64,000 nucleotides of DNA from a virus (IMGVR_UViG_3300017917_001336:1-64000); one strand, 5' to 3'; shown: positions 4,426 through 49,170, counted from the stretch's first letter. A program made the numbers and translations. The notes: generated by a model not told the origin, from the letters alone.

Positions 4426-4434
4426 GGATAGAAT

Positions 4435-4782
4435 ATGGCAATAGCAAATTATGAAGTAACTACAACAGCAGCTGCAGCATACACAAGCAGTGGTGCAAAA
4501 GCAATCACAAGCATTATTGTTTGTAACAAAGCAATATATAACCCAAGCAACCCTACAGCAGGATTAACTAATTTATATTTGTATGCTGTTCCAGCTGCAG
4601 ATGTTGCGGGCGGCGTATTAGACAAACATTTAATTGTTAACGGTTTACCTATTCCAGCAGGAGAAACAGTAAGTCTTGATCAAGAAAAGTTAGTGTTAGA
4701 CAACGGAGATGCACTTTTTGCTAAATCAGAAAATGCGCTAACTGCAAATTTAGTAATGACTGTAAGTACATTGGCTGTGTAA
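4435..4782 (+). CDS. Small beta-rich structural/adaptor protein (paralog of 14066 and 34254)
   Basis: 115 aa; IPAGETVSLDQEKLVLDNGD matches VPPNQSLRVINGGEKLVLAGD of 14066. Confidence 0.65.
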   Translation: MAIANYEVTTTAAAAYTSSGAKAITSIIVCNKAIYNPSNPTAGLTNLYLYAVPAADVAGGVLDKHLIVNGLPIPAGETVSLDQEKLVLDNGDALFAKSENALTANLVMTVSTLAV

Positions 4783-4783
4783 T

Positions 4784-5326
4784 ATGAGATATTTAAGACA
4801 ACAAAACATCAATCGTAGAGCACCATACGATCAACGTTTGTATGTTGATATGACAAACAGTATTGTCATGACTACAACAAACAATATGTTAATGCCTGTT
4901 GGAACAACTGTTCAACGTCCGGTTAGTCCTGTTGACGGAATGATTCGTTACAACTCAGATATTACAACAGGCGGTGAAGTTGAAGTGTTTCAAAACGGGA
5001 TATGGCGCAGCTTACGATTTAAAGAATCAACACAAATTACAAAACAATCATTTACCGGTGACGGAGTAACTAGTGTCTTTGGGCCGTTAAGCCCACAACC
5101 TCCAACAGTAATACAAAGTGGAGCTACTTGGTCTGGAGACAATTTAATAGTTATTGTTGGCGGCGTTTATCAAGTTTATAATACAAACTACTTAATTGAG
5201 CAAGGTACAGCACTAGGCGCACCATACGATACCGGGCCAGATGCGTCAAAATTCTACATCCATTTTACATCAGCATCCCCAGGAGGCACAACCCCAATAA
5301 CTATTTTAAGCGGGTTTGATCAGTAA
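4784..5326 (+). CDS. Structural protein carrying a PxGTTxQRP...GMIRYN module
   Basis: PVGTTVQRPVSPVDGMIRYNSD and FTGDGVTSVF...IVIVGGVYQ modules typical of T4-like virion proteins. Confidence 0.65.
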   Translation: MRYLRQQNINRRAPYDQRLYVDMTNSIVMTTTNNMLMPVGTTVQRPVSPVDGMIRYNSDITTGGEVEVFQNGIWRSLRFKESTQITKQSFTGDGVTSVFGPLSPQPPTVIQSGATWSGDNLIVIVGGVYQVYNTNYLIEQGTALGAPYDTGPDASKFYIHFTSASPGGTTPITILSGFDQ

Positions 5327-5340
5327 TATCAGGAGGCAGT

Positions 5341-34253: not shown

Positions 34254-34607
34254 ATGGCAACAGGAATTTTATACACAGGTACACCGGCAGCAACAACAGC
34301 AACTACTGCCTATACTGTACCAACAACAACTTATAGTGTTGTTAACGTCAGTTTTACTAACACCGGTACCACATCTGCAACTATTCGTTTGTATATTGGT
34401 TCTAGTTTAGGATCCGCTGGTAGCCCAACCGGATCGTTAGTTAACAGTGAAGCTATTGAATACGATACTGTAATTGCTCCTAAAGGAGTATTTGAACGAA
34501 CAGGTCTAGTGTTAAGTAGTGTTACTGGAGCAAAATATATTACAGTATGGGCTTCAACTGCTAACGTGAACGTAAACATCTACGGTATCGAGACATCAAC
34601 AGTATAA
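34254..34607 (+). CDS. Small structural/adaptor protein
   Basis: 117 aa; IEYDTVIAPKGVFERTGLVL; same size and pattern as 4435 and 14066; SD GGAG. Confidence 0.6.
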   Translation: MATGILYTGTPAATTATTAYTVPTTTYSVVNVSFTNTGTTSATIRLYIGSSLGSAGSPTGSLVNSEAIEYDTVIAPKGVFERTGLVLSSVTGAKYITVWASTANVNVNIYGIETSTV

Positions 34608-34627: not shown

Positions 34628-35770
34628 ATGGCACGTTATAATACGGTAATCCCAACAGCGACTGCGTCTGCTACAGCATCAATTGCATCTCCAGGTGCTG
34701 GTGCATTTACAAAACTTACAGGTACTAGCTATACTGTAACAATTGGAGATCCTGTACTATTTGCCGGTCAATCTCAAGTATTCTATAATGCTGCCAGCGG
34801 AACAATTACATTAACATTTACTAGTACTGGTGCAGGAACATTTATTGGCCCAGGCGGAAGCACTACAACAAGTCAAACAATTGGTAGTGGATCAACATTA
34901 ACAATTTATTCTGATGGTACTAACTGGGTATTAATGGGTTCAGGTGGCGGTCCTGTAACAGCAACAACAGGTTCATTTAGCGGCGACATAACACTTACTG
35001 GCGCAACACCTACAGTTAACTTTAACAATACTAATCCAACTATTGCTACAAACAGTTCAGGAAGTACAGCTACAGTTTTTAACACTAACGTTACTACGCT
35101 TAACATTGGCGGTGCAGCCACTACTATTGCAATGGGTGTAAATGCTGGTACAACTACATTAAAAGGTAAGCTATCGCTTGCTGGCTCAGGTAGTGGTACT
35201 GTTTCATTCCAGGCAGCAGCCGCGGCAGGTTCAGTAACTTATACATTACCGAGTGCCGATGCAGCTGCGTCTGGTTATGCACTAGTATCAAACGGTAGTG
35301 GTACATTAAGTTGGGCACAAACAGGTGCATCAGTAACTGACGACAGTTCATCAACAACTTTATATCCATTGTTGTTTAATGCTACTAGCGGAAATGCAAC
35401 AACTATCAGAGTATCAAGTACAAAATTATCGTTTAATGCTTCGACTGGTACAATGACAGCAACGGCATTGACTGCAACAACTATTACTGAAACTTCTAGT
35501 ATAGCACTAAAAGAAAATTTAAATCCAATTACTGGTGCACTTGATAAAGTTTTACAACTAGCAGCATATACATATGATCGTAAAGATGGATCTAGTAAAA
35601 ACGAAGCTGGTTTAATTGCTGAAGATGTAAACGAAATTATTCCAAACTTAGTTACATTAGATAAAGATGGCAAGCCTTACGGTATTCAATATACGAAACT
35701 TACAGCTTATCTTGTTGAAGCAGTTAAATCACTAAAGGAAGAGATTGATAGATTAAAAGGTAATAAGTAA
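34628..35770 (+). CDS. Tail-fibre-like protein with C-terminal intramolecular chaperone (peptidase S74)
   Basis: ETSSIALKENL...GLIAEDVNEIIPNLV...IQYTKLTAYLVEAVKSLKEEI; Ser/Lys dyad spacing retained. Confidence 0.8.
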   Translation: MARYNTVIPTATASATASIASPGAGAFTKLTGTSYTVTIGDPVLFAGQSQVFYNAASGTITLTFTSTGAGTFIGPGGSTTTSQTIGSGSTLTIYSDGTNWVLMGSGGGPVTATTGSFSGDITLTGATPTVNFNNTNPTIATNSSGSTATVFNTNVTTLNIGGAATTIAMGVNAGTTTLKGKLSLAGSGSGTVSFQAAAAAGSVTYTLPSADAAASGYALVSNGSGTLSWAQTGASVTDDSSSTTLYPLLFNATSGNATTIRVSSTKLSFNASTGTMTATALTATTITETSSIALKENLNPITGALDKVLQLAAYTYDRKDGSSKNEAGLIAEDVNEIIPNLVTLDKDGKPYGIQYTKLTAYLVEAVKSLKEEIDRLKGNK

Positions 35771-37596
35771 TGGCAACGTTAAAAAATACCACAATTAGTG
35801 ATACTGGAACTTTAAAATTATCAACAGGTACGCAAGCACAGCGTCCAGCGATTGTTTCAAAAGTACAATCATTTTCAAGCCCTGGTACATGGACTGCACC
35901 TACTGGAGTAACTAGCGTTGAAGTGTTAGTTGTTGCCGGTGGTGGTGGTACTGGTTGGGACGTTGGTGGCGGAGGTGGCGGAGGTGGCGTACTATATGCT
36001 GCTAGTTTTCCAGTCACACCAGGAACACCATATCCAGTAGGCGTAGGTTCAGGTGGTGCTTCTGCATCAACTCCCGGAGCTAAAGGATCTAACGGAGGCA
36101 ACTCAAACTTTTCAACATTAACTGCTGTCGGCGGTGGTGGAGGAGGAGCATATCCCGGTAACGGTGCAGGTCTTCCCGGCGGATCTGGTGGTGGTGGAGG
36201 AGACCAATTTGCTTCGGGCGGTTCTGGAACACAATCTCCAAGCGGCCCAGCTACTGGATACGGATTTCCTGGAGGTGGTAGTGGACAAGCATGGGTAGGT
36301 GGTGGTGGCGGTGGCGCTGGCGGCGCTGGCCAAGGTGGCGGAGGAATTTTGCGCTATCAAGATTCAAGAGAAAGCAACTTATCAGGCGGCGACGGTTCTA
36401 TTGCATTGCCTGGAGGATGGACTGGTTACCCGGGATCAGGCGGCTTTTATGAAGGAACAGCAGCTTTAGGTGGGCCAGGATTAACATTTACAATTACTGG
36501 AACAGCAATTACATATTCAGGCGGCGGCCACGGGCAATCTGACGGTGGATTTATTCAACCAACAAACCCTAATCCAGGGTGGGGTGCAAACGGTTCTGGT
36601 GAAGGCGGCTCGTATTATCCCGGAAGTCCCGGTGTAGTTGTTTTAAGATATAGAGTTCCAACTGATACAGAAACTAGTGGATATGCTAGATTTAACACAA
36701 ATAGTAATAGTTTAGAAATGGACGGTGGTAGCGGTTTTTCATCGTTACAAGATGCAGCAGATTCACGCATTGTTAAATTTACCGAAGTTGGTAGTTGGAC
36801 TTGGACTGTTCCTGCAAACGTTTATAGCGTCAGAGTACTAGTAGTTGCTGGCGGTGGTGGCGGATGTGAACGTCACGGTGGTGGTGGAGGTGGAGGCGGT
36901 ATGCTTGAGCATTTTGGCTATCCAGTTACACCAGGCGCAAGTATCCCAGTAGTAGTTGGCGCAGGCGGTAAAGGTTTAGCTAAACCATCAGGAAATCCAC
37001 ACGGAAATCCAGGCTATCAAGGTTATCCAAGTAGTTTTGGAGATATTATTACTTATGGCGGTGGCGGTGGATTCAGTGACGGAAGTGTCCAAGGCGATCC
37101 AAGAGCCACTGGTGGCGGAGTCCAGCTCGCTGGCGGATCAGGTGGCGGCGGAAGCCATAACCCTGGTAACGTGTCTGGCGTAGGCATCTTAGGACAAGGA
37201 TTTCCAGGCGGTGGCGCATCTAGTTCGCAGACAAGCCGTGGCGGTACAGGCCCATATCCTGGTACAGGTAACCCACATGCAGGCGGTGGTGGCGGTGGCG
37301 CAGGTGGCGCAGGCGAACCATCGAGAAGCAACAGTGAAGCAGGTAATGGTGGCCCAGGACGAATGAGCGATATTACTGGACAACAAGTTTGGTACGCAGG
37401 CGGCGGCGGCGGATCTTGCCATAATAACACTACTCAAGGCGGTAAAGGTGGTATTGGTGGTGGTGGCGATGGTGGCGGCCCTGGATATCATCAACCGGGT
37501 GTTGACGGTCTTGGTGGTGGTGGCGGTGCAGCTAATAATGATCCAGCTCCTGTAGGTGGATATGGTGGCTCCGGAATTGTTATTATTCGTTATTAA
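35770..37596 (+). CDS. Glycine-rich (polyglycine) putative adhesin 1, two Gly-rich domains
   Basis: 608 aa; VLVVAGGGG...GGSGIVIIRY-type domain present twice; TAATG overlap with the S74 fibre. Confidence 0.75.
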   Translation: MATLKNTTISDTGTLKLSTGTQAQRPAIVSKVQSFSSPGTWTAPTGVTSVEVLVVAGGGGTGWDVGGGGGGGGVLYAASFPVTPGTPYPVGVGSGGASASTPGAKGSNGGNSNFSTLTAVGGGGGGAYPGNGAGLPGGSGGGGGDQFASGGSGTQSPSGPATGYGFPGGGSGQAWVGGGGGGAGGAGQGGGGILRYQDSRESNLSGGDGSIALPGGWTGYPGSGGFYEGTAALGGPGLTFTITGTAITYSGGGHGQSDGGFIQPTNPNPGWGANGSGEGGSYYPGSPGVVVLRYRVPTDTETSGYARFNTNSNSLEMDGGSGFSSLQDAADSRIVKFTEVGSWTWTVPANVYSVRVLVVAGGGGGCERHGGGGGGGGMLEHFGYPVTPGASIPVVVGAGGKGLAKPSGNPHGNPGYQGYPSSFGDIITYGGGGGFSDGSVQGDPRATGGGVQLAGGSGGGGSHNPGNVSGVGILGQGFPGGGASSSQTSRGGTGPYPGTGNPHAGGGGGGAGGAGEPSRSNSEAGNGGPGRMSDITGQQVWYAGGGGGSCHNNTTQGGKGGIGGGGDGGGPGYHQPGVDGLGGGGGAANNDPAPVGGYGGSGIVIIRY

Positions 37597-37604
37597 GGAT
37601 TTTT

Positions 37605-37904
37605 ATGGCAGAGCTAGAAAATAATCAACAAGAACAAACAGTAGTTAGTGTTCCCACTCTTCCTACAAAAGAAGAATTATTAGAAAAATGGGATTCTTCT
37701 TGGGGAGTTTATATATGGTACGGATCAATTCCAGAATTTTTGTTAAAATGGGGATTGTTAGGAAACCATGAAATTAGAGAACACACAGAATATGAGTATA
37801 TTGACACCGATCAAGATGGCACATATGAAGTAATGTTTACTACTAAGAATGTAGAGTTTAGTACAGATGAAGAATTTTCATCAAAAATTAAACAAGTTCG
37901 ATAA
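37605..37904 (+). CDS. Small acidic hypothetical protein (possible partner or chaperone of adhesin 1)
   Basis: 99 aa, SD AAGGA, last gene before the terminator. Confidence 0.6.
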   Translation: MAELENNQQEQTVVSVPTLPTKEELLEKWDSSWGVYIWYGSIPEFLLKWGLLGNHEIREHTEYEYIDTDQDGTYEVMFTTKNVEFSTDEEFSSKIKQVR

Positions 37905-37914
37905 AATTACTACT

Positions 37915-37947
37915 AATAAAAAAGCACCCTTAGGGTGCTTTTTTATT
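37915..37947. terminator. Bidirectional rho-independent terminator
   Basis: AATAAAAAAGCACCC-TTA-GGGTGCTTTTTTATT between convergent genes. Confidence 0.88.
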
Positions 37948-39409
37948 TTGTGTCTCTTATTACTGAAAGCATCATTTTGTGAGATATTTCTTTAGTTTCT
38001 TTTAAGAAATTTATCTCATGTGCTACAAGGTTATCAGCATGTTCTCTAATTAATGAATGTAACATCTGATACTCTTTCTTAATAGATTCTTGATCAAATA
38101 ATCCAAGCCCCTGCATTACTACAATAAAATTAGCTTCTGTAAATAATGCATATTGAGAAACATTATAAAAGTCTTCTTTGATTGGCAACTTATATCTCCA
38201 CTGCTCTAAATTAGATTTTAGGCTATCTGGAAGTTCAAGATTTTGTATATCTTTCCAAAACTGACTGTTATCTTTTTTAACAACGTAATGTAGCGCAATG
38301 AAATCTCTAATATTTTCCATAATGCTGGTTATTGATCTATTATAACTTTCAATTGTTTTTTCATCATAGTTTGCTAGTCTATGCATTAAAATAAATGCCT
38401 GTTGAATAGACGTGCCAATACTAGTTGCTTCTAGTGGCTCTACAAAACTTCCGCTAAGGCCGATTGCAACACAATTTTTAATCCATGCACGATCTAATGC
38501 ACCCGGATCAAATTTAAATTCTTTACCAATTTCAATCTCATGTCCTAGGTATTTTTCTGCTTCTGCCTTAGCTTGATCCTGCGTAATATAATCGCTGTCA
38601 TAGATATAACCATTTCCACCACGACCCCAAACAGGTATTCTAAACATCCAACCGTAATCCATTGCTTTTGCTAAAGTCCACATATTATAGTTTTCTGTAT
38701 CCGGTGTTGGAAATGCTATAGCAGCCTTCATTTTTAAATACTTTCCGTAACTTATCCACTTTGCTCCTAACTTAGACATTAGAATACGTTTAAATCCGGT
38801 ACTATCGATGTAAAAATCATAGTTGTAATCTTGTTTGTTTCCTTTAAGAGTACCAATACTACCATCTTCAGCTAAAGTAACATCAATAATTTCGTCATCG
38901 ATAAAATTAATCCCCAAAGATTTACCAGTTTTAGTTAAAAATTCATTTAATTTATGTGTGTTAAAATGATACTGACTAGCAGGTGATTCTTTTGGATTAT
39001 TTAAAAACCATGTATTAACTTGACTTCTCCAATATCGTTCACTTGACATTGCTGTAGCTGGTTCGCCTTCAGCAATTAATTTGCCGTACACATATCTATA
39101 TTGACTGGCTCGACCGTCGTAAGGGACTTGTACGCTGTGCATATAAGGATCAGGAGTCCAATCTCTAAACATAATACCTACTTTGTATGTAGCATCGCAT
39201 TCTTTGATTAATGTGTATTGGTCAATTTCTAAAAAATCCATAAACTCTTTCCAGTGTTCAGTACTTCCTTCACCGACACCAACTATCCCAATAGCTTTAG
39301 AACATATTAAATCAATATGTAAATCTGGGAGACGTTTTTTTAAAACTAATGCAGCTACTAGTCCAGCGGTACCGCCGCCGACTACTGCTAATCTATTAAC
39401 ATGTTTCAT
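37943..39409 (-). CDS. Flavin-dependent halogenase (tryptophan halogenase family)
   Basis: VVGGGTAG FAD motif, IVGVGEGS, ATYKVGI (catalytic Lys position), IDSTGF, GWMFRIP (WxWxIP variant), FVEPLEATSI. Confidence 0.9.
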   Translation of the reverse strand: MKHVNRLAVVGGGTAGLVAALVLKKRLPDLHIDLICSKAIGIVGVGEGSTEHWKEFMDFLEIDQYTLIKECDATYKVGIMFRDWTPDPYMHSVQVPYDGRASQYRYVYGKLIAEGEPATAMSSERYWRSQVNTWFLNNPKESPASQYHFNTHKLNEFLTKTGKSLGINFIDDEIIDVTLAEDGSIGTLKGNKQDYNYDFYIDSTGFKRILMSKLGAKWISYGKYLKMKAAIAFPTPDTENYNMWTLAKAMDYGWMFRIPVWGRGGNGYIYDSDYITQDQAKAEAEKYLGHEIEIGKEFKFDPGALDRAWIKNCVAIGLSGSFVEPLEATSIGTSIQQAFILMHRLANYDEKTIESYNRSITSIMENIRDFIALHYVVKKDNSQFWKDIQNLELPDSLKSNLEQWRYKLPIKEDFYNVSQYALFTEANFIVVMQGLGLFDQESIKKEYQMLHSLIREHADNLVAHEINFLKETKEISHKMMLSVIRDTK

Positions 39410-39966
39410 ACGAAATTATACCATCCTGTAATTATATATTTTTCTTCAGTTGGACTAATTACACCTCTATGTGTATGTGTCCAGTCTGCAGGCCAAATTA
39501 ATGTTTTTCCTTGCTCAGCTGTTGTAATCAAATTTTGATGGAAAAATTCAGTTCCTCCACCATTACTTACTGTGTTTAAGTACGTCATAAAAACTAAATG
39601 CCTTGTACTGTTTATAGGATCGGGCGATCCTCTTTCAGTATGATATGCAACATATCCTTCACCTGGTTTATAATGCTGTATTTTCACTCGTTCTCTAATA
39701 GTAAATGGACTATAAGAATTGCAATATGGATATTGCTGTATATAAGTTTCTAATACTTGTTGCAATTCATACAAATAATTTGATAGCGCAGGATCTAAGA
39801 TATCATACCTACATTCTGTGCTAGATTTTTCTAAAGAATTTACAAGACCATCGACTTTACCTTGCCAAATAGTTCCTGCACGTTTTGAAGGATCATTTTT
39901 AAATAATTCTATTAAATCTTCGCAAGTTTGGGGAGAAACAACCCCTTGTCCTATAAACGTATTCAT
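39406..39966 (-). CDS. 2OG-Fe(II) oxygenase (prolyl-hydroxylase-like, H-x-E type)
   Basis: IQHYKPGEGYVAYHTE...RHLVFMTYLN...GGTEF...WPADWTHTHRG...KYIITGW; start moved to the ATG at 39966. Confidence 0.88.
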   Translation of the reverse strand: MNTFIGQGVVSPQTCEDLIELFKNDPSKRAGTIWQGKVDGLVNSLEKSSTECRYDILDPALSNYLYELQQVLETYIQQYPYCNSYSPFTIRERVKIQHYKPGEGYVAYHTERGSPDPINSTRHLVFMTYLNTVSNGGGTEFFHQNLITTAEQGKTLIWPADWTHTHRGVISPTEEKYIITGWYNFV

Positions 39967-39971
39967 ACATT

Positions 39972-40016
39972 TAGTTAGCACTTTTTAACTTTCTTGCTTT
40001 AATATTTGGCTAAATA
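39972..40016. promoter_or_regulatory. Divergent late-type promoter pair (CTAACTA on minus, CTAAATA on plus)
   Basis: Minus-strand motif 39978-39972 is 5 nt before ATG 39966; plus-strand motif at 40010-40016. Confidence 0.55.
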
Positions 40017-40046
40017 ATAGAAATAATCGTAAAGAGATTAGAATTC

Positions 40047-41873
40047 ATGGCTACACTAAAGAATACAACTATTAATGATACAGGGTTTATACAATTACCC
40101 AAAGGAACAACAGCCCAGCGCGGCATTTACACCTTTACGGGCCCAGGATCATGGACTGCACCAGCGGGTGTAACTAGTGTTTCAGTACTAGTAGTAGGCG
40201 GCGGAGGCGCTGGTGGACAAGATACCGCCGGTGGAGGAGGTGGAGGAGGCGTTGTTTTCCACAATAGCTTTCCAGTTACACCAGGCACATCTTATCCTAT
40301 TACAGTTGGCGCAGGCGGAGTTCGTCCTGACGGCGGCCCAACAGGAGCAAGAGGAAATAATGGAAGTCCTTCAACATTTAGTACACTAACAGCACTAGGT
40401 GGCGGTGGTGGAACAGGTAGTGCATCGGGCGGTCTAGCTGCTCAACCAGGTGGTTCGGGTGGTGGAGGCGGAAACGGCTTGGCCGCTGGATCTGCAACAC
40501 AACCAGGTCAATCAAATCCAGGCGCAACAGTAAATGCTGGTTTTGCCGGAGAAGCAGCTGCATCAGGCTATGGCGCAGGTGGCGGCGGAGCAGGTGAAGC
40601 TGGCGGTACAAAAGGTATTATGCGAGGCGGTGACGGCTTAAGATTTTTTGGCCAATACTGGGGCGGCGGTGGCGGCGGTACAATAAATGGCGCAGGCGGC
40701 CTTGGCGGAGCGGGTGGTGGCGGTTTTAACCTACCAGGTACTAGCTTCCAAGGTCCAAGAAATAACGGATTAGCAAACACCGGCGGCGGTGGTTCTGCAC
40801 ATTATGGATCATGGAATGGAGCAGGTAATGGTGGTTCTGGTATTGTTATTGTTTGTACAGACCAGGTAGGTAGTGTACGATATAATACAGATAACAATTT
40901 AGTTGAATATTTTGACGGAACAGAGTGGCAAAACTTTAAGTGTAGAGGCACCGGCGGATCTATACAAACTATCACAATCCACTCATTTAAAACAGTAGGA
41001 AGTCATTCATTTACAGCACCTCCAGGTGTTGACCGTGTATGGGCACTAGTTGTCGCTGGTGGTGGAGGTGGAGGCACACGTAATTCCGGTGGTGGAGGTG
41101 GAGGCACTGACGGCGGTTCAGGTGGCGGTGCTGGAGGAATGTTAGAAGGAACATATCCAGTTACACCAGGAACAACTTATTCAATTACAGTTGGTGCTGG
41201 CGGTGCTGGTGGCGGTCGAGCTGGTTCACCTAACCCAGGAGGTCAAAGTCCAGGCGCAAAAGGCGGAGATTCTGTATTTGCAACAGCAACAGCCATTGGC
41301 GGCGGATTTGGTGGCTGTGGCCCAGGCGGGAATCCCGGAGGCCCAGGCGGCAGTTCAGGTGGTGCAGGTGGCGGCGGCGGATCAGCAACATCAACTCCTG
41401 GTGCTGCACAAACTCCAAGCGGTGGCCTAACAGGATACGGAAACGCTGGCGCAGGCAATCCTCAAGTTGCTCCATATACAGGTTCAGGTGGTGGCGGTGC
41501 TGGCTCAGGCGGAACAGCTGGCGGTTCTCAAAACAAAGGTTGGGGCGGATACGGAAGATTAAGTTATATTACAGGTACTGCTGTATTGTACGCTGCAGGC
41601 GGTGGTGGTGGTGGTTCTGGACCTACTTTCTCGTGGGGTGGCACAGGCGGTGCTCAAATGCGTGGTGGTCATAACACTACAGCCGGCGGCATTGGCGGAG
41701 CAGGTGGCGGAACTATGCAAAGTTATATTAGAACAGGTTATAACGAAGCTGACGGAGATAACGGAGCAACAAACACAGGTTCAGGCGGTGGTGGTGGTGC
41801 AGGAAATCCTTGGTCTACTCCAGGCGGCTATGGTGGAGCAGGCGGCCCAGGAATTGTAATCATTCGCTACTAA
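40047..41873 (+). CDS. Glycine-rich putative adhesin 2, two Gly-rich domains
   Basis: 608 aa; MATLKNTTINDTG N-terminus shared with 35770 and 41889; ends GGPGIVIIRY. Confidence 0.75.
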   Translation: MATLKNTTINDTGFIQLPKGTTAQRGIYTFTGPGSWTAPAGVTSVSVLVVGGGGAGGQDTAGGGGGGGVVFHNSFPVTPGTSYPITVGAGGVRPDGGPTGARGNNGSPSTFSTLTALGGGGGTGSASGGLAAQPGGSGGGGGNGLAAGSATQPGQSNPGATVNAGFAGEAAASGYGAGGGGAGEAGGTKGIMRGGDGLRFFGQYWGGGGGGTINGAGGLGGAGGGGFNLPGTSFQGPRNNGLANTGGGGSAHYGSWNGAGNGGSGIVIVCTDQVGSVRYNTDNNLVEYFDGTEWQNFKCRGTGGSIQTITIHSFKTVGSHSFTAPPGVDRVWALVVAGGGGGGTRNSGGGGGGTDGGSGGGAGGMLEGTYPVTPGTTYSITVGAGGAGGGRAGSPNPGGQSPGAKGGDSVFATATAIGGGFGGCGPGGNPGGPGGSSGGAGGGGGSATSTPGAAQTPSGGLTGYGNAGAGNPQVAPYTGSGGGGAGSGGTAGGSQNKGWGGYGRLSYITGTAVLYAAGGGGGGSGPTFSWGGTGGAQMRGGHNTTAGGIGGAGGGTMQSYIRTGYNEADGDNGATNTGSGGGGGAGNPWSTPGGYGGAGGPGIVIIRY

Positions 41874-41888
41874 TAGGATAAACACAGT

Positions 41889-42944
41889 ATGGCAACTTTA
41901 AAAAATTCGATAATTAGCGACACAGGTTTTTTTGATTTACCTGGAGGTACAACAGCTCAACGTCCGGCTAGCCCAGTATCGGGAATGCTTCGTTTTAACA
42001 CAGATTTAAATTGTGCAGAATTTTACAACGGAACAACCTGGGTTCAAATTGAAAATCAAACAGTTAACTCAACGGGTGAAATTACTAAAACAGTACTACA
42101 CGTTTTTAATCAAGTAGGCAGTTATACATTTACACCACCAGTTGGTGTTGATGTAGTTCAAGTATTAGTAGTTGCTGGCGGTGGCGGCGGTGGTTCACGT
42201 AACGGTGGCGCAAACGGTGGCGGTACTGACGGGGGTGCAGGCGGCGGCGCTGGCGGCTTTGTTGAAGTAGGTTACTATCCAGTAACAGGCGGAGTAGGTA
42301 TTCCTGTTGTTGTGGGTCGAGGTGGCGTTGGCGGTTCTAGACCAGCTGTACCGGGACAAAGCCCAGGCGAAAACGGAACAAACTCATCATTTGGAGCACT
42401 AATTGCAATCGGTGGTGGAGGCGGAGGATGCGGGCCAGGCGGCCCAGCTGCTGACGGAAAACCGGGCGGTTCAGGTGGCGGACGTGGAGGCGGCGGCTCT
42501 CCAAATACCGGCGTTACCGGAACAGGTACACAAAAATCACAACCAACTGCATCAGGCGGCGGCACACGTGGCTGGGGATACCCAGGCGGTTATAATCCAA
42601 ACGTGTCCAACTATTCTGGTGCTGGTGGTGGCGGTGCCGGTGGCGCAGGATATGACGGTGGTTCTAGTAGAACAGCACCAGGCGGCCAAGGACGTATGAG
42701 TATGATTACTGGATATCAAGTTTGGTATGCAGGTGGTGGCGGCGGAGCCAGTGGATCAAGTGCTAGCCACGCAGGTCAAGGTGGTCTTGGCGGCGGCGGC
42801 CGCGGAAACGGATATAGTGCCAGCGGAGATCCGGGCGGATTTGCATCTGGCGGTGGTGGTGGTGGCGGATCTGGAGGTAACTCTGGTGACGGCGCAGGCT
42901 ACGGCGGCGATGGCGGTCCAGGAATTGTTATTGTTAGATATTAA
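41889..42944 (+). CDS. Glycine-rich putative adhesin 3, one Gly-rich domain
   Basis: 351 aa; MATLKNSIISDTG...PGGTTAQRPASPVSGMLRFNTD; ends GGPGIVIVRY. Confidence 0.75.
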   Translation: MATLKNSIISDTGFFDLPGGTTAQRPASPVSGMLRFNTDLNCAEFYNGTTWVQIENQTVNSTGEITKTVLHVFNQVGSYTFTPPVGVDVVQVLVVAGGGGGGSRNGGANGGGTDGGAGGGAGGFVEVGYYPVTGGVGIPVVVGRGGVGGSRPAVPGQSPGENGTNSSFGALIAIGGGGGGCGPGGPAADGKPGGSGGGRGGGGSPNTGVTGTGTQKSQPTASGGGTRGWGYPGGYNPNVSNYSGAGGGGAGGAGYDGGSSRTAPGGQGRMSMITGYQVWYAGGGGGASGSSASHAGQGGLGGGGRGNGYSASGDPGGFASGGGGGGGSGGNSGDGAGYGGDGGPGIVIVRY

Positions 42945-42953
42945 GGAATTGAA

Positions 42954-43160
42954 ATGTTACCGTTAACAACAGAAGATGCAGCTCAACTAAATCTACATTA
43001 TCAAGGATATACTATTGATTCTAGTAAAGGTCCTCATTTAGCTACAAACGAACTAGTAGCTAAATGCCACACAGAAAAATTACCTAGCGGAAATGTTGCA
43101 CATTTGTACTATGATCTAGCAGCTGATCATGTATATGTGTATGACGTTACACCAGGTTAA
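42954..43160 (+). CDS. Small hypothetical protein
   Basis: 68 aa, SD AAGGA, directly after adhesin 3. Confidence 0.55.
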   Translation: MLPLTTEDAAQLNLHYQGYTIDSSKGPHLATNELVAKCHTEKLPSGNVAHLYYDLAADHVYVYDVTPG

Positions 43161-43801
43161 CTGTAACCATACAGTTCAAACTGTCTTTCAGAACTTAACT
43201 TTCTAGTATTTGAATTTAAACCTAACATTGGCCGAGTGTCGTATTTTAATTCAGCTCTCGGCCCGTTTGCACGAACATAGAACATAAATGCGTTAATTTG
43301 TTCTCGCCCGTGGTATGGGGTTCTCCAGTGAGGAAGCTCATGTCCTCTGTACATAATAGCATCTCCTGGTTCTTGAACTATTTCCATAACAGTTTTATCT
43401 TTGTCTTCCATGTATAATGGCCAAGGTGTTGTAGTTTCGTCCACTTCTATACACAACGACACACTAAATTCTGATGCAGATCTATCAATGTGTCTTAACA
43501 TCTCTGCACCATTTGAATATATTCTAGCATATGAATATGTAGGAAATACAGGCTCCTTAAGATAATTTTCTACAACTGATTTAATTAAACTATCTGAAAG
43601 AGCTTCAAAACATAATGGACTGTACCATGAAAAACTACGATTTACCATTTCGTCATGCCACGGAAACTCATTTTCAGTAGTAGGTCTTTGAACAGCATAC
43701 GCAAGCTCTCTAGCTAATTTAAATTCTCTTGCTAAAATTTTACACGCATCTTTATGTACAGCATTTTTTAAAATAGCGTACCCATCTTTTTCAAAACTCA
43801 T
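43157..43801 (-). CDS. 2OG-Fe(II) oxygenase
   Basis: PTYSYARIY...LRHIDR...GDAIMYRGHELPHWR; paralog of 47034. Confidence 0.85.
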   Translation of the reverse strand: MSFEKDGYAILKNAVHKDACKILAREFKLARELAYAVQRPTTENEFPWHDEMVNRSFSWYSPLCFEALSDSLIKSVVENYLKEPVFPTYSYARIYSNGAEMLRHIDRSASEFSVSLCIEVDETTTPWPLYMEDKDKTVMEIVQEPGDAIMYRGHELPHWRTPYHGREQINAFMFYVRANGPRAELKYDTRPMLGLNSNTRKLSSERQFELYGYS

Positions 43802-45501
43802 AGAGAATCCTTTTTTATTAATAGATTAAATTCTGGCAAATACAAATAATTAATTTCAGATCTGCGAATAGTACCTAGCGCATCATCGATAGTTTCTACT
43901 ATACAATCACCAGCTAAATTAAAACTAGTATTGAACAGTATAGGCACGCCTGTTAGTTTATAAAACTCATTAATTAAGTTGTAAAAATGTTTATTATCAT
44001 CATGTTTTAAAGTTTGTACTCGACAAGTGCCATCAACATGTGTTATAGCTGGTATTTCTGATTGTTTATTTTTATGAACATTAACAGCAAACATCATGTA
44101 AGGACTTTCATGCAACCCCCTTAAGTCAAACCAATCATTTGCATATTCATGCAATACAGTACCAGCAAATGGCCTAAACCATTCTCTTTGTTTAACAGTA
44201 TTAACATGATCCTTTCCCACTGGATCTCTAGGATCATATAGGATGCTACGATTTCCTAATGCTCTAGGGCCAGCCTCGCTTCTTCCTTGATACATTGCTA
44301 CAATATTTTTATTAGCAATGATTGTTGCTACATCACTCGGCGTAACAACTGTATAAGTTTCCTTAACCAATTTAGAAATTATATCATTGACAGAATAACT
44401 ATACTCTAATCCATAGTATAATGATTTTTGAGGACGCTTTGTAGTATCTTTTGTTTTTTCGTGCCAGATTAACTTAGCCGCTCCAATGCTAGTGCCGGCA
44501 TCTGATGAAATTGGTTCAACATATATTTTTATGTCTGGCGGCAGTTCATTTAAAAATTCATAGTTAGCTACACAATTTAAAAAGTAACCACCAGATAAAC
44601 ATACATTCTTACACCCAGTAAGTTTTACCATTTTGAGGATATATGACTTAATTTCGTTTTGAGTTTGAGTTTGCAAACTGTAAGCAAAATCAGCTTGTGT
44701 TTGAAAATCTGCATTTATTAAGTGCGGAGCTAACTTTGTATTAACTTCGACTGTTCTTAAATCGTTTTGTTTAGGTTTAAATAACTCTGTATTCACAAAA
44801 CCTTGTTTAATAATAGCCGGATTCCGATCATCGTTCCTTCCATAGGAACTCATACCCATAACTTTACCAGCATCTAACTCGTGAAATCCAAATTGTTTTG
44901 ATGTCTTTTGAAACGCCAATGCTTCACTGATTGCATTTGTAATTTTAACATTATCGTCAACTATAACGTTAGCTTCAAACGGCACTGACACTACTTTATC
45001 AAGTTGAACAAAATTAGCAGGATAATTAGCAATAAAAGTTGTACTAGATTCTCTACCGTACGAACCTTGCAAAAATCTTTGGTCATTTATGTAGTAATCA
45101 CTGCCCATTCCGTCTTTAATAATACAAAGAGCTTGGTCAAATCCTGAATTATAAAATGCACACGCAGCATGTAACTTGTGATGATGTGCCCATAGGTCAT
45201 AAAAATTATAATCTTTATTATAGAAATCTTTGTTTAATCTTGATATAAAGGTTGTATAGACATTGTCTGTAGTAAAATTTTCTACAGGAACTGTTGGCCC
45301 AACACCAGCTACACAAATATCGTTAACATGATCTACATAGTCGGGTAATTTTGCCAGTGTTTGAAACACATACGCATCGTATTTTATGTTAGACAACCGT
45401 TCGTTTTCTAAATGGAATACCATCTCGCCATTTTTTAAAACGGTTACAGCAGAATTGTGTACTCTGCTTATTCCTACAGTAATGTGGTCGTGTTTGCTCA
45501 T
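43798..45501 (-). CDS. O-carbamoyltransferase (NodU/CmcH/TobZ family)
   Basis: ENERLS, HHHKLHAACAFYNSGF, GKVMGMSSYG, GRSEAGPRALGNRSIL, KQREWFRPFA, HVDGTCRVQT, NTSFN. Confidence 0.92.
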   Translation of the reverse strand: MSKHDHITVGISRVHNSAVTVLKNGEMVFHLENERLSNIKYDAYVFQTLAKLPDYVDHVNDICVAGVGPTVPVENFTTDNVYTTFISRLNKDFYNKDYNFYDLWAHHHKLHAACAFYNSGFDQALCIIKDGMGSDYYINDQRFLQGSYGRESSTTFIANYPANFVQLDKVVSVPFEANVIVDDNVKITNAISEALAFQKTSKQFGFHELDAGKVMGMSSYGRNDDRNPAIIKQGFVNTELFKPKQNDLRTVEVNTKLAPHLINADFQTQADFAYSLQTQTQNEIKSYILKMVKLTGCKNVCLSGGYFLNCVANYEFLNELPPDIKIYVEPISSDAGTSIGAAKLIWHEKTKDTTKRPQKSLYYGLEYSYSVNDIISKLVKETYTVVTPSDVATIIANKNIVAMYQGRSEAGPRALGNRSILYDPRDPVGKDHVNTVKQREWFRPFAGTVLHEYANDWFDLRGLHESPYMMFAVNVHKNKQSEIPAITHVDGTCRVQTLKHDDNKHFYNLINEFYKLTGVPILFNTSFNLAGDCIVETIDDALGTIRRSEINYLYLPEFNLLIKKDSL

Positions 45502-45508
45502 GATTAAC

Positions 45509-45555
45509 TAGTTATCTTCAAAACTTTCAAGCCCTAAAATATTGTACTATAAATA
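45509..45555. promoter_or_regulatory. Divergent late-type promoter pair (ATAACTA on minus, perfect TATAAATA on plus)
   Basis: TATAAATA at 45548-45555 equals the T4 late consensus; the minus-strand motif 45515-45509 is 7 nt before ATG 45501. Confidence 0.65.
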
Positions 45556-45574
45556 CTTGCCACCGTAAAGAGAA

Positions 45575-46237
45575 ATGACTATGTTCACTAATATTGAAAA
45601 ATCGCCCGAAAACTCAAATTTTGCATCAAAAGATTTAATTGATAAAACAATAGAGTCAAAAGACCAACAGCGTGTTGATCTTTATCAACCAAAAGCACCT
45701 GAAGGGTTGTTATCTATTGCTACCGCTACATTATTCAATAATGAAGAATGTAAAAAAATTATTGATAGTTGCATTGGCGAGCTTTGGACACCAGTTAAAG
45801 TGTACGGATCTGGAAACATACATCGAGCATCAATGCAACGATTAAGAGGAAATTTATCAGAGCATCCTTTAAATTTATTTCGAGAGGCAATTGTATCTGC
45901 TAACGCAGAAATATACAACTTTAGTCTTGTAGGCATGATTGACTTAGATTATCCTCAAGTAGCTCGATATAGTAAAGGTGATTTCTATGATCTTCATACT
46001 GAAATTAATCCTATGACTCTAACAAGAAAACTTTCGTTTCTTGTTATGTTAAACGATCCATCAGAGTACGAGGGCGGTGAAATTGAATTTTTAAATACAG
46101 AATTAAAACACGAAGAAACTTCACAAGTTGGTACTATGCTTATCTTTCCTAGTTTTTTAACTTATAGAATTAAGCCTGTAAAGAAAGGAAGTAGATATGT
46201 AGTTACTGGAAGCATTCATGGAGATTCGTTTAAATGA
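45575..46237 (+). CDS. PKHD-type 2OG-Fe(II) oxygenase homolog with altered iron ligands
   Basis: YDLHTE...RKLSFLVMLNDPSEYEGGE...IFPSFLTYRIKPV; Tyr in place of the distal His. Confidence 0.8.
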   Translation: MTMFTNIEKSPENSNFASKDLIDKTIESKDQQRVDLYQPKAPEGLLSIATATLFNNEECKKIIDSCIGELWTPVKVYGSGNIHRASMQRLRGNLSEHPLNLFREAIVSANAEIYNFSLVGMIDLDYPQVARYSKGDFYDLHTEINPMTLTRKLSFLVMLNDPSEYEGGEIEFLNTELKHEETSQVGTMLIFPSFLTYRIKPVKKGSRYVVTGSIHGDSFK

Positions 46238-47037
46238 TATTAGAAAATAATTATTTTTGGTTTAAATCTGCATTAAGTCCCGAGGTATGTAATAAAATTA
46301 TCGACTTGGGAGAAGAAAAACTAGCAGAATTAGAGCGACAGTTTGGTGAAAGAGCTACGGAAGCTACTACATTTGATCACAAACAAAAGAATGGGTCTAT
46401 CGGTGATGAGCCTGCTGGTAAATTATCTGCAGGTGCATTATCAAGAGAAGGTAGATTAAAAAAAGGTATTAAAGAAGAAGATGTTTACATTCGTGATACA
46501 AAAGTATCGTGGTTAGACGATCGCTGGATTTACGACTTAATACATCCGTACATCCACGAAGCAAATTATCGAGCAGGTTGGAATTTTGAATGGGATTGGT
46601 CAGAATCCTGTCAATTTACAAAGTATGGTATCGATCAGTTTTATGGTTGGCATACTGACTCTGGTTGGGAACCTTATACACGATTTGACCCCGAAGTTGA
46701 CGAAATTGTTAGATATGCCGACGGCACTCCTATGTTAGATGCTTTTAACAACGTCATACCAAAAAATAGACATAAGATTACAGATGAAAATAAAATTGGG
46801 AAGATTAGAAAAATTAGTGTTACTATTAATTTGACCGACCCAAAAAACTATGACGGCGGAAACTTAAAATTTGATTTTGGACCACACGCTGAAAAAAGAT
46901 TTCATACATGTACTGAAATTAGACCAAAGGGTAGTATAATTGTTTTTCCGTCACATGTATATCATCAAGTAACCCCAGTAACTAGAGGTACACGATACAG
47001 TCTAGTTTTATGGAATTTAGGAAAGCCATTCAGATGA
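46234..47037 (+). CDS. PKHD-type 2OG-Fe(II) oxygenase (prolyl-4-hydroxylase-like)
   Basis: QFTKY...YGWHTD...RKISVTINL...YDGGNLKF...FPSHVYHQVTPVTRGTRYSLVLW. Confidence 0.9.
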   Translation: MILENNYFWFKSALSPEVCNKIIDLGEEKLAELERQFGERATEATTFDHKQKNGSIGDEPAGKLSAGALSREGRLKKGIKEEDVYIRDTKVSWLDDRWIYDLIHPYIHEANYRAGWNFEWDWSESCQFTKYGIDQFYGWHTDSGWEPYTRFDPEVDEIVRYADGTPMLDAFNNVIPKNRHKITDENKIGKIRKISVTINLTDPKNYDGGNLKFDFGPHAEKRFHTCTEIRPKGSIIVFPSHVYHQVTPVTRGTRYSLVLWNLGKPFR

Positions 47038-47693
47038 GCAACGCAGAATATTTTAAAGAACATCATTATACAGTTATTAAAGGTATTATACCTCAAGAAA
47101 TTTGTAACGTAGCTACTAAGTATGCGTTATTAAAAATGGAAACTGAGTTTAATCCTGAAGATGTAAGAACTGGACAAATTCCAGGAACACATTCTATCTA
47201 CAGCGATACACTAATGGAAACATTAATGCATTTTATGTTGCCACACATGGAAGCAGCAACAGGATTAGAATTATGTCCAACATATACTTACTACAGAGTT
47301 TACAAAGCAGGTGATGAATTGCTTAGACATAAAGATAGAGAAAGTTGTGAGATATCAACAACTGTATGTTTTGGATTTAATTATCTAAGTGATGATTCCA
47401 ACTATCGTTGGCCTATATTTGTAGACGAAAAATCTGTTTCTGTTTCTACTAAAAACGGATTTGTATCAGCAAACAATCCAGGAGTTTCAGTTAGCATGGA
47501 ACCTGGAGATGCTGTTGTATATCGAGGTTGCGAAGTAGAGCATTGGCGAGAAAAATTTGATGTAAAAGAAGGTAGTTATCACGTACAAGCATTCTTACAT
47601 TATATTGATAAGAATGGTCCGTACTATCCTGAATTTGCGTTTGACGGTCGCAAAGGCATTGGATATAAAAAAGATTACACTTACACAAAATAA
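47034..47693 (+). CDS. 2OG-Fe(II) oxygenase
   Basis: PTYTYYRVYKAGDELLRHKDRESCEIS...GDAVVYRGCEVEHWRE; start moved to the ATGA overlap at 47034. Confidence 0.85.
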   Translation: MSNAEYFKEHHYTVIKGIIPQEICNVATKYALLKMETEFNPEDVRTGQIPGTHSIYSDTLMETLMHFMLPHMEAATGLELCPTYTYYRVYKAGDELLRHKDRESCEISTTVCFGFNYLSDDSNYRWPIFVDEKSVSVSTKNGFVSANNPGVSVSMEPGDAVVYRGCEVEHWREKFDVKEGSYHVQAFLHYIDKNGPYYPEFAFDGRKGIGYKKDYTYTK

Positions 47694-48361
47694 TGGCACA
47701 TTTGTACACTGATTTTATTTTTTGTAAAAATAATTTTTTTAAAAATCCAAAACGTGTATTGGAGTTTGCTAACTCTTTAGATTTTTCATTTAAAAATAGT
47801 GCGTTCCCTGGAACAAGGACAGAAAACTTAGCATTATCTAAAGATCCGGTTTCTAAAGAATTTGCACAATTTTTTGCAAGAAAACTTGTAAATGAAGTTT
47901 ATACTAACATTATTGACTTAGATATTGATATTCGTTTTCACAAGTACCCTAATTTACATGAAGATGCTGAATTAGACATTGGATGGGTACATCAAGATGA
48001 TAATGAATTATTAGCAGGTCTTGTTTATCTAAATGAAGATGTGGATAATTTTGATTCAGGCACATCGTTTTACAGTTCCCCTAATAACTTTGATTATCCA
48101 GGACAAATTAGATTAGATTTTAATTCTAATAACGCTGACATCAATTTAGAAAATTATAAAACTTGCTTGAAAAACCATACAGGACAATTTAAAGAAAATG
48201 CAAGAGTAGGTAATTTATATAATCGATTAATAACATATGATTCAAATGTTTTCCATAGACCCAATTCTTATAATACAGGCGACGGAAACAATAGACTCAT
48301 ATTAATTTTTGTAGTATCAAACTACTCATATAGAAATCGTGAATATGAGATTCACGAGTGA
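47693..48361 (+). CDS. 2OG-Fe(II) oxygenase-like protein
   Basis: FPGTRT...GWVHQD...AGLVYLN...SGTSFY...YNRLITYDSNVFHRP...RLILIF. Confidence 0.8.
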   Translation: MAHLYTDFIFCKNNFFKNPKRVLEFANSLDFSFKNSAFPGTRTENLALSKDPVSKEFAQFFARKLVNEVYTNIIDLDIDIRFHKYPNLHEDAELDIGWVHQDDNELLAGLVYLNEDVDNFDSGTSFYSSPNNFDYPGQIRLDFNSNNADINLENYKTCLKNHTGQFKENARVGNLYNRLITYDSNVFHRPNSYNTGDGNNRLILIFVVSNYSYRNREYEIHE

Positions 48362-48391: not shown

Positions 48392-48724
48392 ATGTCAGAA
48401 AGACCACAAGTTGAACCGTTTTTTGATTACGGATCAGTAAACGACACACACAAAGAAGCTGCTAAAGCATGTGCTGTAATCTGTGAAGAATGCGGAATTC
48501 CAGAAATTGGCCAAATCATCAAACAGAGATTTGCAATTGAAGAACCTCCAACATACGATTTACATGCATCAGAATTTTATAAAGTTGCAACAGAAAATAA
48601 AATTTCTGTAACAGCTGGCGGTTATATTATGGAAAACGGTATGAAATATCCGTACTGTAATGTTTCAGCTGATATTAGAACATTAGAAAAGTTTTTAGAA
48701 ACTTTAAGATCTCAAAAAGATTAA
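48392..48724 (+). CDS. Hypothetical protein
   Basis: 110 aa, SD AGGAG, ATAAGTA motif at 48361-48367, Cys cluster CAVICEEC. Confidence 0.65.
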   Translation: MSERPQVEPFFDYGSVNDTHKEAAKACAVICEECGIPEIGQIIKQRFAIEEPPTYDLHASEFYKVATENKISVTAGGYIMENGMKYPYCNVSADIRTLEKFLETLRSQKD

Positions 48725-49170
48725 ATTAAATCTACAATATCAAATACAGTTTGTAGTTTAGTTCTAATTGCTTTATTTGAGAAACTATTTCGAAGCCCCT
48801 GATGTAGGGGCTTCGGTGCATAATCAATAGTAGCCCACACCCACCCCATATGTTCTTCACTTAGTGTAGGAATAAATTCGTCTTCTATGACGCACAGATA
48901 AGTGTGAAAATTAAAAACTTTGTCGTTACTAACAAATGTTTCTAGCGGAATAGTTTTGATAATATTTGGTACTTTGCCAATTTCTTCAGTAACTTCTCTT
49001 TGAAGTCCTTGCCACGGATTTTCATTTTGTAAATTAGTACCGCCAACAAGCCCCCAAGTCCCGGTGTGTTTTCCATGAGCTTTTTGTAGTAGTAAAATTC
49101 TTCGTGTAGATTTAGCGTAGAACAATGCTCCGCTACAAACTATACGATCTTTTACAACTCCAGTCTCCAT
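48721..49170 (-). CDS. NUDIX hydrolase
   Basis: Complete Nudix box G-TNLQN-E-NPWQGLQ-REVTEEIG. Confidence 0.9.
   Translation of the reverse strand: METGVVKDRIVCSGALFYAKSTRRILLLQKAHGKHTGTWGLVGGTNLQNENPWQGLQREVTEEIGKVPNIIKTIPLETFVSNDKVFNFHTYLCVIEDEFIPTLSEEHMGWVWATIDYAPKPLHQGLRNSFSNKAIRTKLQTVFDIVDLI

Follow-up and report, generated by a model that had tools for sequence, protein, structure and literature searches.

Organisation of the fibre-tip and enzyme region

The stretch analysed here, IMGVR_UViG_3300017917_001336:1-64000 (hereafter the window; 64 000 nucleotides), represents the initial 64 kb of a viral contig that is 147.6 kb long and has a CheckV completeness of ~40 %. At positions 34628–48361, it carries the end of a tail-fibre module in which three paralogous glycine-rich genes, encoding putative fibre-tip proteins, are interleaved with genes encoding a flavin-dependent halogenase, an O-carbamoyltransferase (CT) and a set of 2-oxoglutarate (2OG)-Fe(II) oxygenase-like proteins. 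The gene map is based on open reading frame (ORF) calling and on Pfam and PHROG scans, the PHROG scan covering ten ORFs, none of which is an enzyme with a Pfam match. These scans confirmed the interleaving of three Gly-rich paralogs with enzyme cassettes described in an earlier reading of the DNA that used no database search (the sequence-only reading), which had further proposed that the enzymes act on the Gly-rich proteins.

The tail fibre gene (34628–35770, + strand) has many PHROG matches to 'long tail fiber distal subunit', and its product ends in a Peptidase_S74 intramolecular chaperone domain (PF13884, E value 2.5e-11). It is followed by Gly-rich tip paralog 1 (35770–37596, +; PF21722, E value 2.6e-33), paralog 2 (40047–41873, +; PF21722, E value 6.5e-35) and paralog 3 (41889–42944, +; PF21722). 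Paralogs 1 and 2 are each 608 aa long with two Gly domains, while paralog 3 is 351 aa long with 38.6 % Gly. Across the three, the Gly_rich_2 matches have E values of 4e-15 to 6e-35 and Gly makes up 32–39 % of the protein; the Pro content is 7.4 and 7.1 % in the two Gly domains of paralog 1 and 5.9 % in the domain of paralog 3. The first Gly domain of paralogs 1 and 2 splits a conserved N-terminal motif (…GTxAQR / Gly domain / …R[FY]NT…) that is intact in paralog 3.

Confidence in the AlphaFold2 (AF2) model of paralog 3 is moderate, with a predicted local distance difference test score (pLDDT) of only 67, and Foldseek matched it to the Bxb1 tail tip, the Pam3 fibre gp24 and the Gly-rich domain of ALK (9d93_Q, E value 1.5e-6; 7ypx, E value 5e-5; template modelling (TM) scores 0.37–0.57). 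In Pam3, a TNF-like plus glycine-rich module constitutes the receptor-binding tip and resembles gp38 of phage S16 (PMC9608196). The position of the paralogs in the fibre module and their N-terminal motifs, which are common to structural proteins, make it reasonable to regard them as putative fibre-tip adhesins. Given the Gly_rich_2 matches and a model resembling solved receptor-binding tips, the earlier comparison with polyglycine adhesins of the T-even gp38 type is likewise a reasonable reading, and the motifs quoted with it (QAWVGG, GWTGYP and NPWSTPG) are all present.

Predicted enzymes

Six genes in the region are 2OG-oxygenase-like: three match PF13640, two match phrog_2954 and one, encoding a DUF6445 protein, is a candidate member. 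The first PF13640 gene (39406–39981, −; E value 2.4e-8) overlaps the start of the halogenase gene (ATGA). The other two (45575–46237, +, E value 5.4e-12; 46234–47037, +, E value 7.7e-13) lie in a four-gene operon (45575–48361, +) that continues with one phrog_2954 gene (47010–47693, +; E value 4.5e-45) and the DUF6445 gene (47693–48361, +; PF20043, E value 5e-9). The nearest PDB sequences to the 45575–46237 product are PKHD-type hydroxylases (PiuC), and the 46234–47037 product is also PiuC-type by sequence; the latter gene forms a dyad with the phrog_2954 gene at 47010–47693 that recurs in most related loci. The DUF6445 protein is putatively oxygenase-like and had no PDB sequence match; its gene co-occurs with halogenase and oxygenase genes in five related loci (L075, L076, L083, L084 and L093). 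The remaining phrog_2954 gene (43157–43801, −; E value 7e-51) is paired with the CT gene. The sequence-only reading had listed a CT with one oxygenase, followed by four more oxygenase genes, after paralog 3. Its gene order stands, but the uniform identity that it gave to the oxygenases does not, as PF13640 was detected in only three of the six.

The two phrog_2954 proteins share their invariant motifs. In an alignment of 27 homologs, RHxDR...HWR is invariant, corresponding to H103, D105, H157 and R159 (the HxD...H iron triad and the basic 2OG-binding residue). The highest-ranking structures in the PDB are protein prolyl 4-hydroxylases, namely PPHD of Pseudomonas putida (by itself and in complex with EF-Tu), PhyA of Dictyostelium (which acts on Skp1), PHD2 and vCPH of PBCV-1. 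The AF2 model of the 43157–43801 product has a pLDDT of 92, and its top Foldseek matches are protein prolyl hydroxylases (4j25/4iw3, 6t8m, PHD2 and 5c5t; 4j25 E value 4e-10, TM scores 0.60–0.69), with small-molecule oxygenases (SnoN and FtmOx1) and AlkB homologs at lower ranks. The phrog_2954 proteins are thus predicted prolyl 4-hydroxylase (P4H)-like 2OG oxygenases, with a modelled fold closest to prolyl hydroxylases. The database label 'ferrochelatase' was rejected as a function for this family on the basis of the invariant RHxDR...HWR and the P4H-like fold. The best cultured relatives of the 47010–47693 product are from pelagiphages Mosig and HTVC008M. A 2OG oxygenase has been detected in one cyanophage virion proteome (PMC12801897).

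The CT gene (43798–45501, −) encodes a 567 aa TobZ/NodU/CmcH-type O-carbamoyltransferase with matches to both the Kae1-like Carbam_trans_N and the YrdC-like Carbam_trans_C domains (PF02543, E value 4e-21, and PF16861, E value 2.7e-61, respectively), and with the phrog_2954 gene at 43157–43801 it forms an inverted pair downstream of paralog 3. The carbamoyltransferases NovN, GdmN and TobZ are among its PDB matches. Residues H107, H108 and H111 (HHxxH), D130 and D334, equated by motif with the metal site of TobZ, are invariant in 23 homologs, and the YrdC-like residues of the carbamoyl-AMP site are conserved too. A second CT clade is split into two or three ORFs and lacks Gly-rich and 2OG neighbours; in S-RIM44, a thymidylate synthase gene adjoins it. 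The ORFs of this clade (L041–L071) are consecutive (e.g. 343+198+271 aa), and intervening elements or frameshifts are possible. Elsewhere on the contig of the window, a 315 aa ORF (85824–86771) has a weak phmmer match to the CT (E value 9e-7) and may be Kae1/TsaD-like.

The earlier statement that no nucleotide-hypermodification genes lie nearby was upheld over the 147-kb contig, in which no thymidylate-synthase-like (PF00303), TET/JBP (PF12851) or C5-methyltransferase (PF00145) gene was found, with the qualifications that the PF12851 control matched nowhere and that the genome is ~40 % complete. The missing hydroxymethylase, TET and C5-methyltransferase genes argue against DNA modification; the genome being incomplete, they do not amount to proof.

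The halogenase gene (37943–39409, −; 488 aa) matches PF04820 (Trp_halogenase) with 316 bits against a cut-off of 21, covering profile positions 2–448 of 458, and its PDB matches include BorH-type enzymes, BrvH, Xcc4156 and VirX1. The GxGxxG motif for flavin adenine dinucleotide (FAD) is present as GGGTAG (residues 11–16), and KVG (residue 76) and FVEPLE (residue 322) are candidate sites of the catalytic Lys and Glu, which in PrnA are K79 and E346. The WxWxIP motif takes the form WMFRIP, in which Phe stands in place of the second Trp; this variant is kept in a subclade of ~10 homologs, while others have WxWxIP. The halogenase gene and the oxygenase gene at 39406–39981 are translationally coupled and, in agreement with the sequence-only reading, inverted between paralogs 1 and 2. 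This dyad recurs in L006, L007 and L093 and, with a PhyH-type oxygenase, in HTVC008M (L119), where the dioxygenase and halogenase genes (4290–6249) are wedged between the small and large terminase genes.

Linkage and composition across related phages

For comparison, we used IMG/VR loci (L numbers) in three sets: 66 with CT homologs, 19 with halogenase homologs and 24 selected by Gly-domain pattern alone. CT linkage was counted in 27 dereplicated loci with a full-length CT. A Gly-rich gene lies directly beside the CT in 16 of the 27 loci and at most two genes away in 19, against 7.0 expected under random gene order, and a 2OG-like gene is directly beside the CT in 21. The linkage of CT and Gly-rich genes occurs in at least four orientation classes, exemplified by S-SSM5 (P2954< Ox< CT> Gly<), L007 (Gly< CT> P2954> Gly<), L028 (Gly> CT>) and L011 (Ox> P2954> CT> Gly<), where P2954 denotes phrog_2954, Ox oxygenase and the arrowheads gene direction. 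Linkage of the CT and P4H-like oxygenase genes to one Pro-Gly-rich tip subfamily is found in at least three settings, namely the contig of the window (Rak2-like by capsid), contigs with its fibre genes and T4-like phages. The T4-like carriers are Kyanoviridae cyanophages such as S-SSM5 and the pelagiphage HTVC008M, which has an oxygenase bank and no CT; the bank holds six oxygenases and lies two genes away from the gene of a protein with 33 % Gly and 9 Pro-Gly. In two loci of the S-SSM5 type (L016 and L039), the CT and Gly-rich genes run towards each other and their 3′ ends overlap by ~50 nt, so that a terminator could not fit between the two.

In tblastn with the Gly-rich protein, matches were confined to the first 50–70 N-terminal residues, apparently because of the low-complexity filter, which makes the search unusable for counting Gly domains in cultured phages. 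P-HM1 and P-HM2 were dropped as '2OG-free' controls, P-HM1 being annotated with a 2OG oxygenase of another cluster.

A tree of 89 Gly domains placed enzyme-adjacent domains in one half and domains of enzyme-free loci in the other. CT-adjacent domains form one subclade, which includes paralog 3 and domain 2 of paralog 2; paralog 3 is an ortholog of the CT-adjacent Gly-rich genes of relatives. Domain 2 of paralog 1 groups with halogenase-adjacent domains of L006 and L007. Pro makes up 6.5 % of the enzyme-adjacent Gly domains but 2.7 % of the others, and Pro-Gly dipeptides number 3.0 and 0.64 per 100 aa, respectively. The same difference can be seen within single genomes: in L012, the Pro content is 8.3 and 7.6 % near the CT vs 1.9–3.2 % in distal paralogs, and in L011 it is 6.6 % vs 1.2 %. 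Pro-rich domains also co-occur with enzymes in the 24 loci that were selected irrespective of enzyme content (5/2/2/15, Fisher p 0.009), a further concordant case, L112, having been missed by the threshold, and the number of oxygenases correlates with the number of Pro-rich domains (rho 0.68). The co-variation of enzyme set and Gly-rich genes that the sequence-only reading had proposed to test was recovered in part: the CT and P4H-like oxygenases are linked to a Pro-Gly-rich subfamily, but the halogenase is not.

Promoters and terminators

A canonical T4-type late promoter (TATAAATA, 45548–45555, +) lies 20 nt before the 45575 oxygenase operon. ATAAATA is six-fold depleted in the window (5 seen vs 29 expected), and four of its five copies (24140, 45549, 52072 and 52085) sit 6–27 nt upstream of a gene start, a distribution in which it behaves as a genuine late-promoter core would in this phage. 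The paralog 2 gene has CTAAATAA 36 nt upstream, and the CT cassette is preceded by a sigma70-like TTTACG-17-TACAAT. The claim that every cassette stands behind a late-type NTAANTA motif could be retained for the 45575 operon only, since TAANTA is expected by chance in 11 % of random 60-nt windows and the CT promoter is sigma70-like. In relatives, the share of genes with an upstream ATAAATA is 18–33 % for the Gly-rich genes, 26 % for the phrog_2954b type and 12 % for the Ox267 type. The literature searched on cyanophage and pelagiphage transcriptomes yielded nothing usable on expression timing of these genes.

Both inverted cassettes (39966–39981 and 45501–45515) have [A/C]TAACTA 11–13 nt before the ATG and no obvious Shine-Dalgarno sequence. 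A bidirectional terminator-like hairpin (37915–37947; 15-pair stem with flanking A and T runs) marks the boundary between the + strand fibre genes and the halogenase cassette.

Small ORFs and phage lineage

Several small ORFs accompany the island. A 117 aa fibre-associated ORF (34254–34607, +; phrog_11338 'tail fiber protein', E value 1.5e-6) is syntenic with the fibre gene in L006, L007, L019 and L093–L095. The 99 aa ORF 3′ of paralog 1 (37605–37904, +), a possible fibre chaperone, had no match in the Pfam or PHROG scans and has a homolog in the closest relative, L006. There it lies on the halogenase strand, whereas in the window it lies on the fibre-gene strand, suggesting a local inversion. 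A 68 aa ORF 3′ of paralog 3 (42954–43160, +), without a family match in the Pfam and PHROG scans, overlaps the 3′ end of the 43157–43801 gene by 4 nt at its own 3′ end. Finally, a 110 aa ORF (48392–48724, +; phrog_10937) appears to travel with the island, its homologs adjoining the CT or phrog_2954 genes in L009, L012, L075 and L076.

The major capsid protein (1141–2301) has 69–72 % identity to those of Rak2/GAP32/CBB-type jumbo phages and Sinorhizobium phage Phosso, and the gp15-NUDIX pair (49152–50579), whose NUDIX gene adjoins the enzyme island, is syntenic with PA5oct. These sequence comparisons place the giant aquatic phage among Rak2/GAP32-like jumbo myoviruses and not among T4-like cyanophages; the contig is therefore a jumbo myovirus fragment with cyanophage- and pelagiphage-like accessory enzymes. 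The halogenase is best matched by S-H38 (45 % identity), the CT by S-SSM5, S-CAM8 and P-RSM4 (55 %) and phrog_2954, among cultured phages, by pelagiphage Mosig (41 %). With a Rak2-like capsid and enzymes best matching T4-like cyanophages and pelagiphages, the enzyme set is therefore common to distinct myovirus lineages. Megablast of the region against cultured phages gave no match, and no psbA gene, which was sought when a cyanobacterial host was considered, was found in the 147-kb contig.

Directly upstream of the fibre-tip array lie two giant paralogous ORFs (14825–24127, 3100 aa; 24167–34231, 3354 aa; mutual phmmer E value ~1e-235), which have segments in common with 9246–14060 and 53601–57296.

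Possible roles of the enzyme genes

From the gene identities, folds, linkage and composition bias established here, we infer the substrates and enzymatic steps that follow. The linkage of enzyme and Gly-rich genes is partly kept in related phages, so the enzymes may chemically modify the fibre tips, and we propose, tentatively and with somewhat less than even confidence, that at least some of them tailor the tip proteins as putative substrates. The region would then be the distal end of a tail-fibre module in which tip proteins made of TNF-like and polyglycine domains are coupled to mobile cytoplasmic tailoring enzymes. In the best-supported step, P4H-like 2OG-Fe(II) oxygenases would hydroxylate prolines at X-Pro-Gly sites of the newly made, co-encoded tip proteins. 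Pro-Gly is the classic P4H motif, and its enrichment in the adjacent genes points indirectly to peptidyl-proline as the substrate. Hydroxylation may stiffen or diversify the polyproline/polyglycine-II lattice, resembling the chemistry of collagen and Skp1. More speculatively, the CT may then cap a hydroxyl on the same tip proteins, which is possible, and the oxygenase-halogenase pair might decorate exposed aromatic residues, which is the weakest link. The full pathway, a mobile tip and enzyme module that would install hydroxyproline, O-carbamoyl and halogen marks on polyglycine tips, we consider improbable. The linkage of the CT and P4H-like oxygenases to Pro-Gly-rich tips thus lends comparative support to part of the hydroxylate, carbamoylate and halogenate scheme of the sequence-only reading, but the unlinked halogenase does not fit its last. 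The comparison of the region with a cluster for ribosomally synthesised and post-translationally modified peptides (RiPPs) was not sustained beyond analogy: the putative substrates are structural proteins of 351–608 aa with no short leader/core precursor. Pfam scans of region ORFs of at least 68 aa, with no targeted search made, gave no RiPP recognition element or leader peptidase.

A number of observations weigh against tailoring of the tips. The halogenase tracks oxygenases, not fibre genes: an oxygenase gene is adjacent to 13 of 21 halogenase genes, and a Gly-rich gene lies within three genes of only 4. CT relatives with ~51 % identity occur in L027 among glycosyltransferases and a nucleoside diphosphate (NDP)-sugar epimerase/dehydratase, and thymidylate synthase genes adjoin other CT relatives. 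To our knowledge, no enzymatic O-carbamoylation of proteins is known. None of the fibre-linked (clade-A) CT genes of relatives has an upstream ATAAATA, and S-SSM5-type CT genes have an extended −10 (TGTTATAAT). Many Gly-rich fibre genes lack enzyme neighbours, the halogenase/oxygenase island of Syn9 follows the Pro-poor Gly-rich genes gp36/38/39, and the phrog_2954 gene of P-SSM7 lies between dam and the gp62 clamp loader gene in the replication module. In Kyanoviridae, the same position holds a general accessory-gene island that includes denV, methyltransferases and small ORFs. Lastly, the association of Pro-rich domains with enzymes comprises only ~3 phylogenetically independent contrasts, a number with which a sign test cannot reach significance.

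Alternatively, the end of the fibre module may be a permissive insertion site (a hyperplastic region) for mobile accessory-enzyme cassettes, their proximity to the tip genes being positional and the enzymes acting on host metabolites or other non-virion substrates, such as those of 2OG/nitrogen status, repair or small aromatic or sugar molecules. We regard this explanation as the main rival, only slightly less likely than tailoring of the tips. Accessory genes of these families are sporadic in cyanomyoviruses, with 2OG-Fe(II) genes in 14/16 genomes, CT in 5/16 and prnA in 7/16, and the proposed roles there are 2OG/N-stress or DNA repair (PMC3037559). The island of S-SSM5 and Syn9 also has a denV-like gene, a methyltransferase gene and many small ORFs, and cassettes are found elsewhere, as in HTVC008M (halogenase between terS and terL), P-SSM7 (phrog_2954 in the replication module) and S-H38 (halogenase in a small-ORF island). 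Characterised relatives of the halogenase and CT families, as represented among the PDB matches, mostly act on small molecules, and hydroxylation followed by carbamoylation is known from cephamycin C synthesis, via CefF and CmcH. An insertion hotspot does not account for the CT staying beside one Gly-domain subclade through several rearrangements, in the Rak2-like contig of the window as well as in Kyanoviridae, nor for the enzymes abutting Pro-rich and not Pro-poor paralogs within genomes. The enrichment of the P4H motif Pro-Gly in enzyme-adjacent domains and the closeness of the oxygenase fold to protein prolyl hydroxylases likewise argue for tip tailoring over mere proximity.

The tight linkage of the CT to a specific receptor-binding subfamily could also arise if the CT, perhaps with the oxygenases, altered the host surface glycan that serves as receptor of the tip, or its cytoplasmic precursor. 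Such a modification would stop superinfection or the loss of progeny on debris, and it would tie the presence of the enzyme gene to that of the receptor-binding gene, much as T5 llp co-varies with the receptor-binding protein and seroconversion genes adjoin tailspikes. NodU, NolO and TobZ enzymes carbamoylate sugars, the sugar-related neighbours of the CT homologs in L027 fit this substrate, and the sigma70-like CT promoters are early-looking. We nevertheless think receptor modification unlikely, as the Pfam and PHROG scans found no glycosyltransferase or sugar-nucleotide gene in the island of the window, the P4H-like oxygenase bank and the Pro-Gly bias of the adjacent tips are left unexplained, and the phage and its relatives appear lytic, which would confine any benefit to late infection. 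Modification of nucleic acid, in which an oxygenase would yield a hydroxymethyl base and the CT a carbamoyloxymethyl base that protects phage DNA from restriction, is the most improbable of these explanations, and strongly so: one phage CT of this family does make 5-carbamoyloxymethylcytosine (5cmC; PMC8670742), the second CT clade adjoins thymidylate synthase in S-RIM44 and the P-SSM7 phrog_2954 gene neighbours dam, but the oxygenases are P4H/PKHD-type by best match, not TET or AlkB, and the CTs linked to fibre genes belong to another clade than the split CTs linked to ThyA.

Relation to known systems and significance

The putative tips share with Pam3 gp24, S16 gp38 and the Bxb1 tip a predicted TNF-like sandwich and polyglycine lattice and a gene position at the end of the fibre module. 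They differ in that the window has three paralogs, two of them with tandem domains (one inserted in the N-terminal motif), and in being unusually rich in Pro and Pro-Gly; moreover, no modification enzymes have been described for the Pam3, S16 and Bxb1 tips.

The phrog_2954 proteins resemble PBCV-1 vCPH, P. putida PPHD and Dictyostelium PhyA in their predicted double-stranded beta-helix, the HxD...H motif and the basic 2OG-binding residue, and in the Skp1 pathway a new hydroxyl is capped by a transferase, the same logic as that proposed for the window. Identity to these enzymes is only 12–20 %, however, the phage enzymes come in banks of up to 6–8 paralogs, and the capping enzyme would be a carbamoyltransferase, not a glycosyltransferase.

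The CT has both Pfam domains and the metal and carbamoyl-AMP site residues of TobZ/NodU/CmcH and of the phage 5-hydroxymethylcytosine (5hmC) carbamoyltransferase, but its context in the window lacks antibiotic, Nod-factor, glycan and hydroxymethylase genes. Beside the cephamycin precedent for hydroxylation and then carbamoylation stands the conversion of 5hmC to 5cmC (PMC8670742). Like VirX1, BrvH and Xcc4156, the halogenase has PF04820 and the FAD motif and, at 488 aa, is shorter than true Trp halogenases; unlike them, it belongs to a subclade with WMFRIP for WxWxIP, and its gene is translationally coupled to that of a 2OG oxygenase.

The families themselves, i.e. 2OG-Fe(II) oxygenases, the 'ferrochelatase-domain' T4-GC615, the prnA halogenase and the CT, are known among the accessory genes and in the hypervariable islands of cyanomyoviruses (Sullivan 2010; Millard 2009), and they sit after the fibre genes in S-SSM5, P-RSM4, S-CAM8 and Syn9. 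In contrast, the enzyme genes of the window are interleaved between tip paralogs, not merely placed after them, and belong to a Rak2-like jumbo phage. In the literature searched, we found no description of the linkage between CT and Pro-rich Gly domains.

Genes for P4H-like and other 2OG-Fe(II) oxygenases are among the commonest accessory genes that marine phages carry, and the literature continues to describe their function as cryptic (PMC3037559; PMC9301287). The halogenases and carbamoyltransferases of viruses are likewise without assigned natural substrates. Our analysis provides a concrete hypothesis for the substrate, namely the polyglycine fibre tips, rich in Pro-Gly, whose genes adjoin those of the enzymes, and names cultured carriers of these genes (S-SSM5, P-RSM4, S-CAM8, S-TIM4 and HTVC008M). 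If the hypothesis is false, the region would be one more instance of the hotspot already known to collect accessory genes where the fibre module ends. If at least some of the enzymes do tailor the tips, host recognition by abundant ocean phages would rest on post-translational chemistry as well as on sequence. The full pathway, were it true, would be the first case of a virion protein being O-carbamoylated or halogenated by an enzyme, and it would give phages a new, non-genetic means of adjusting the stability of the tip or its binding to receptors.

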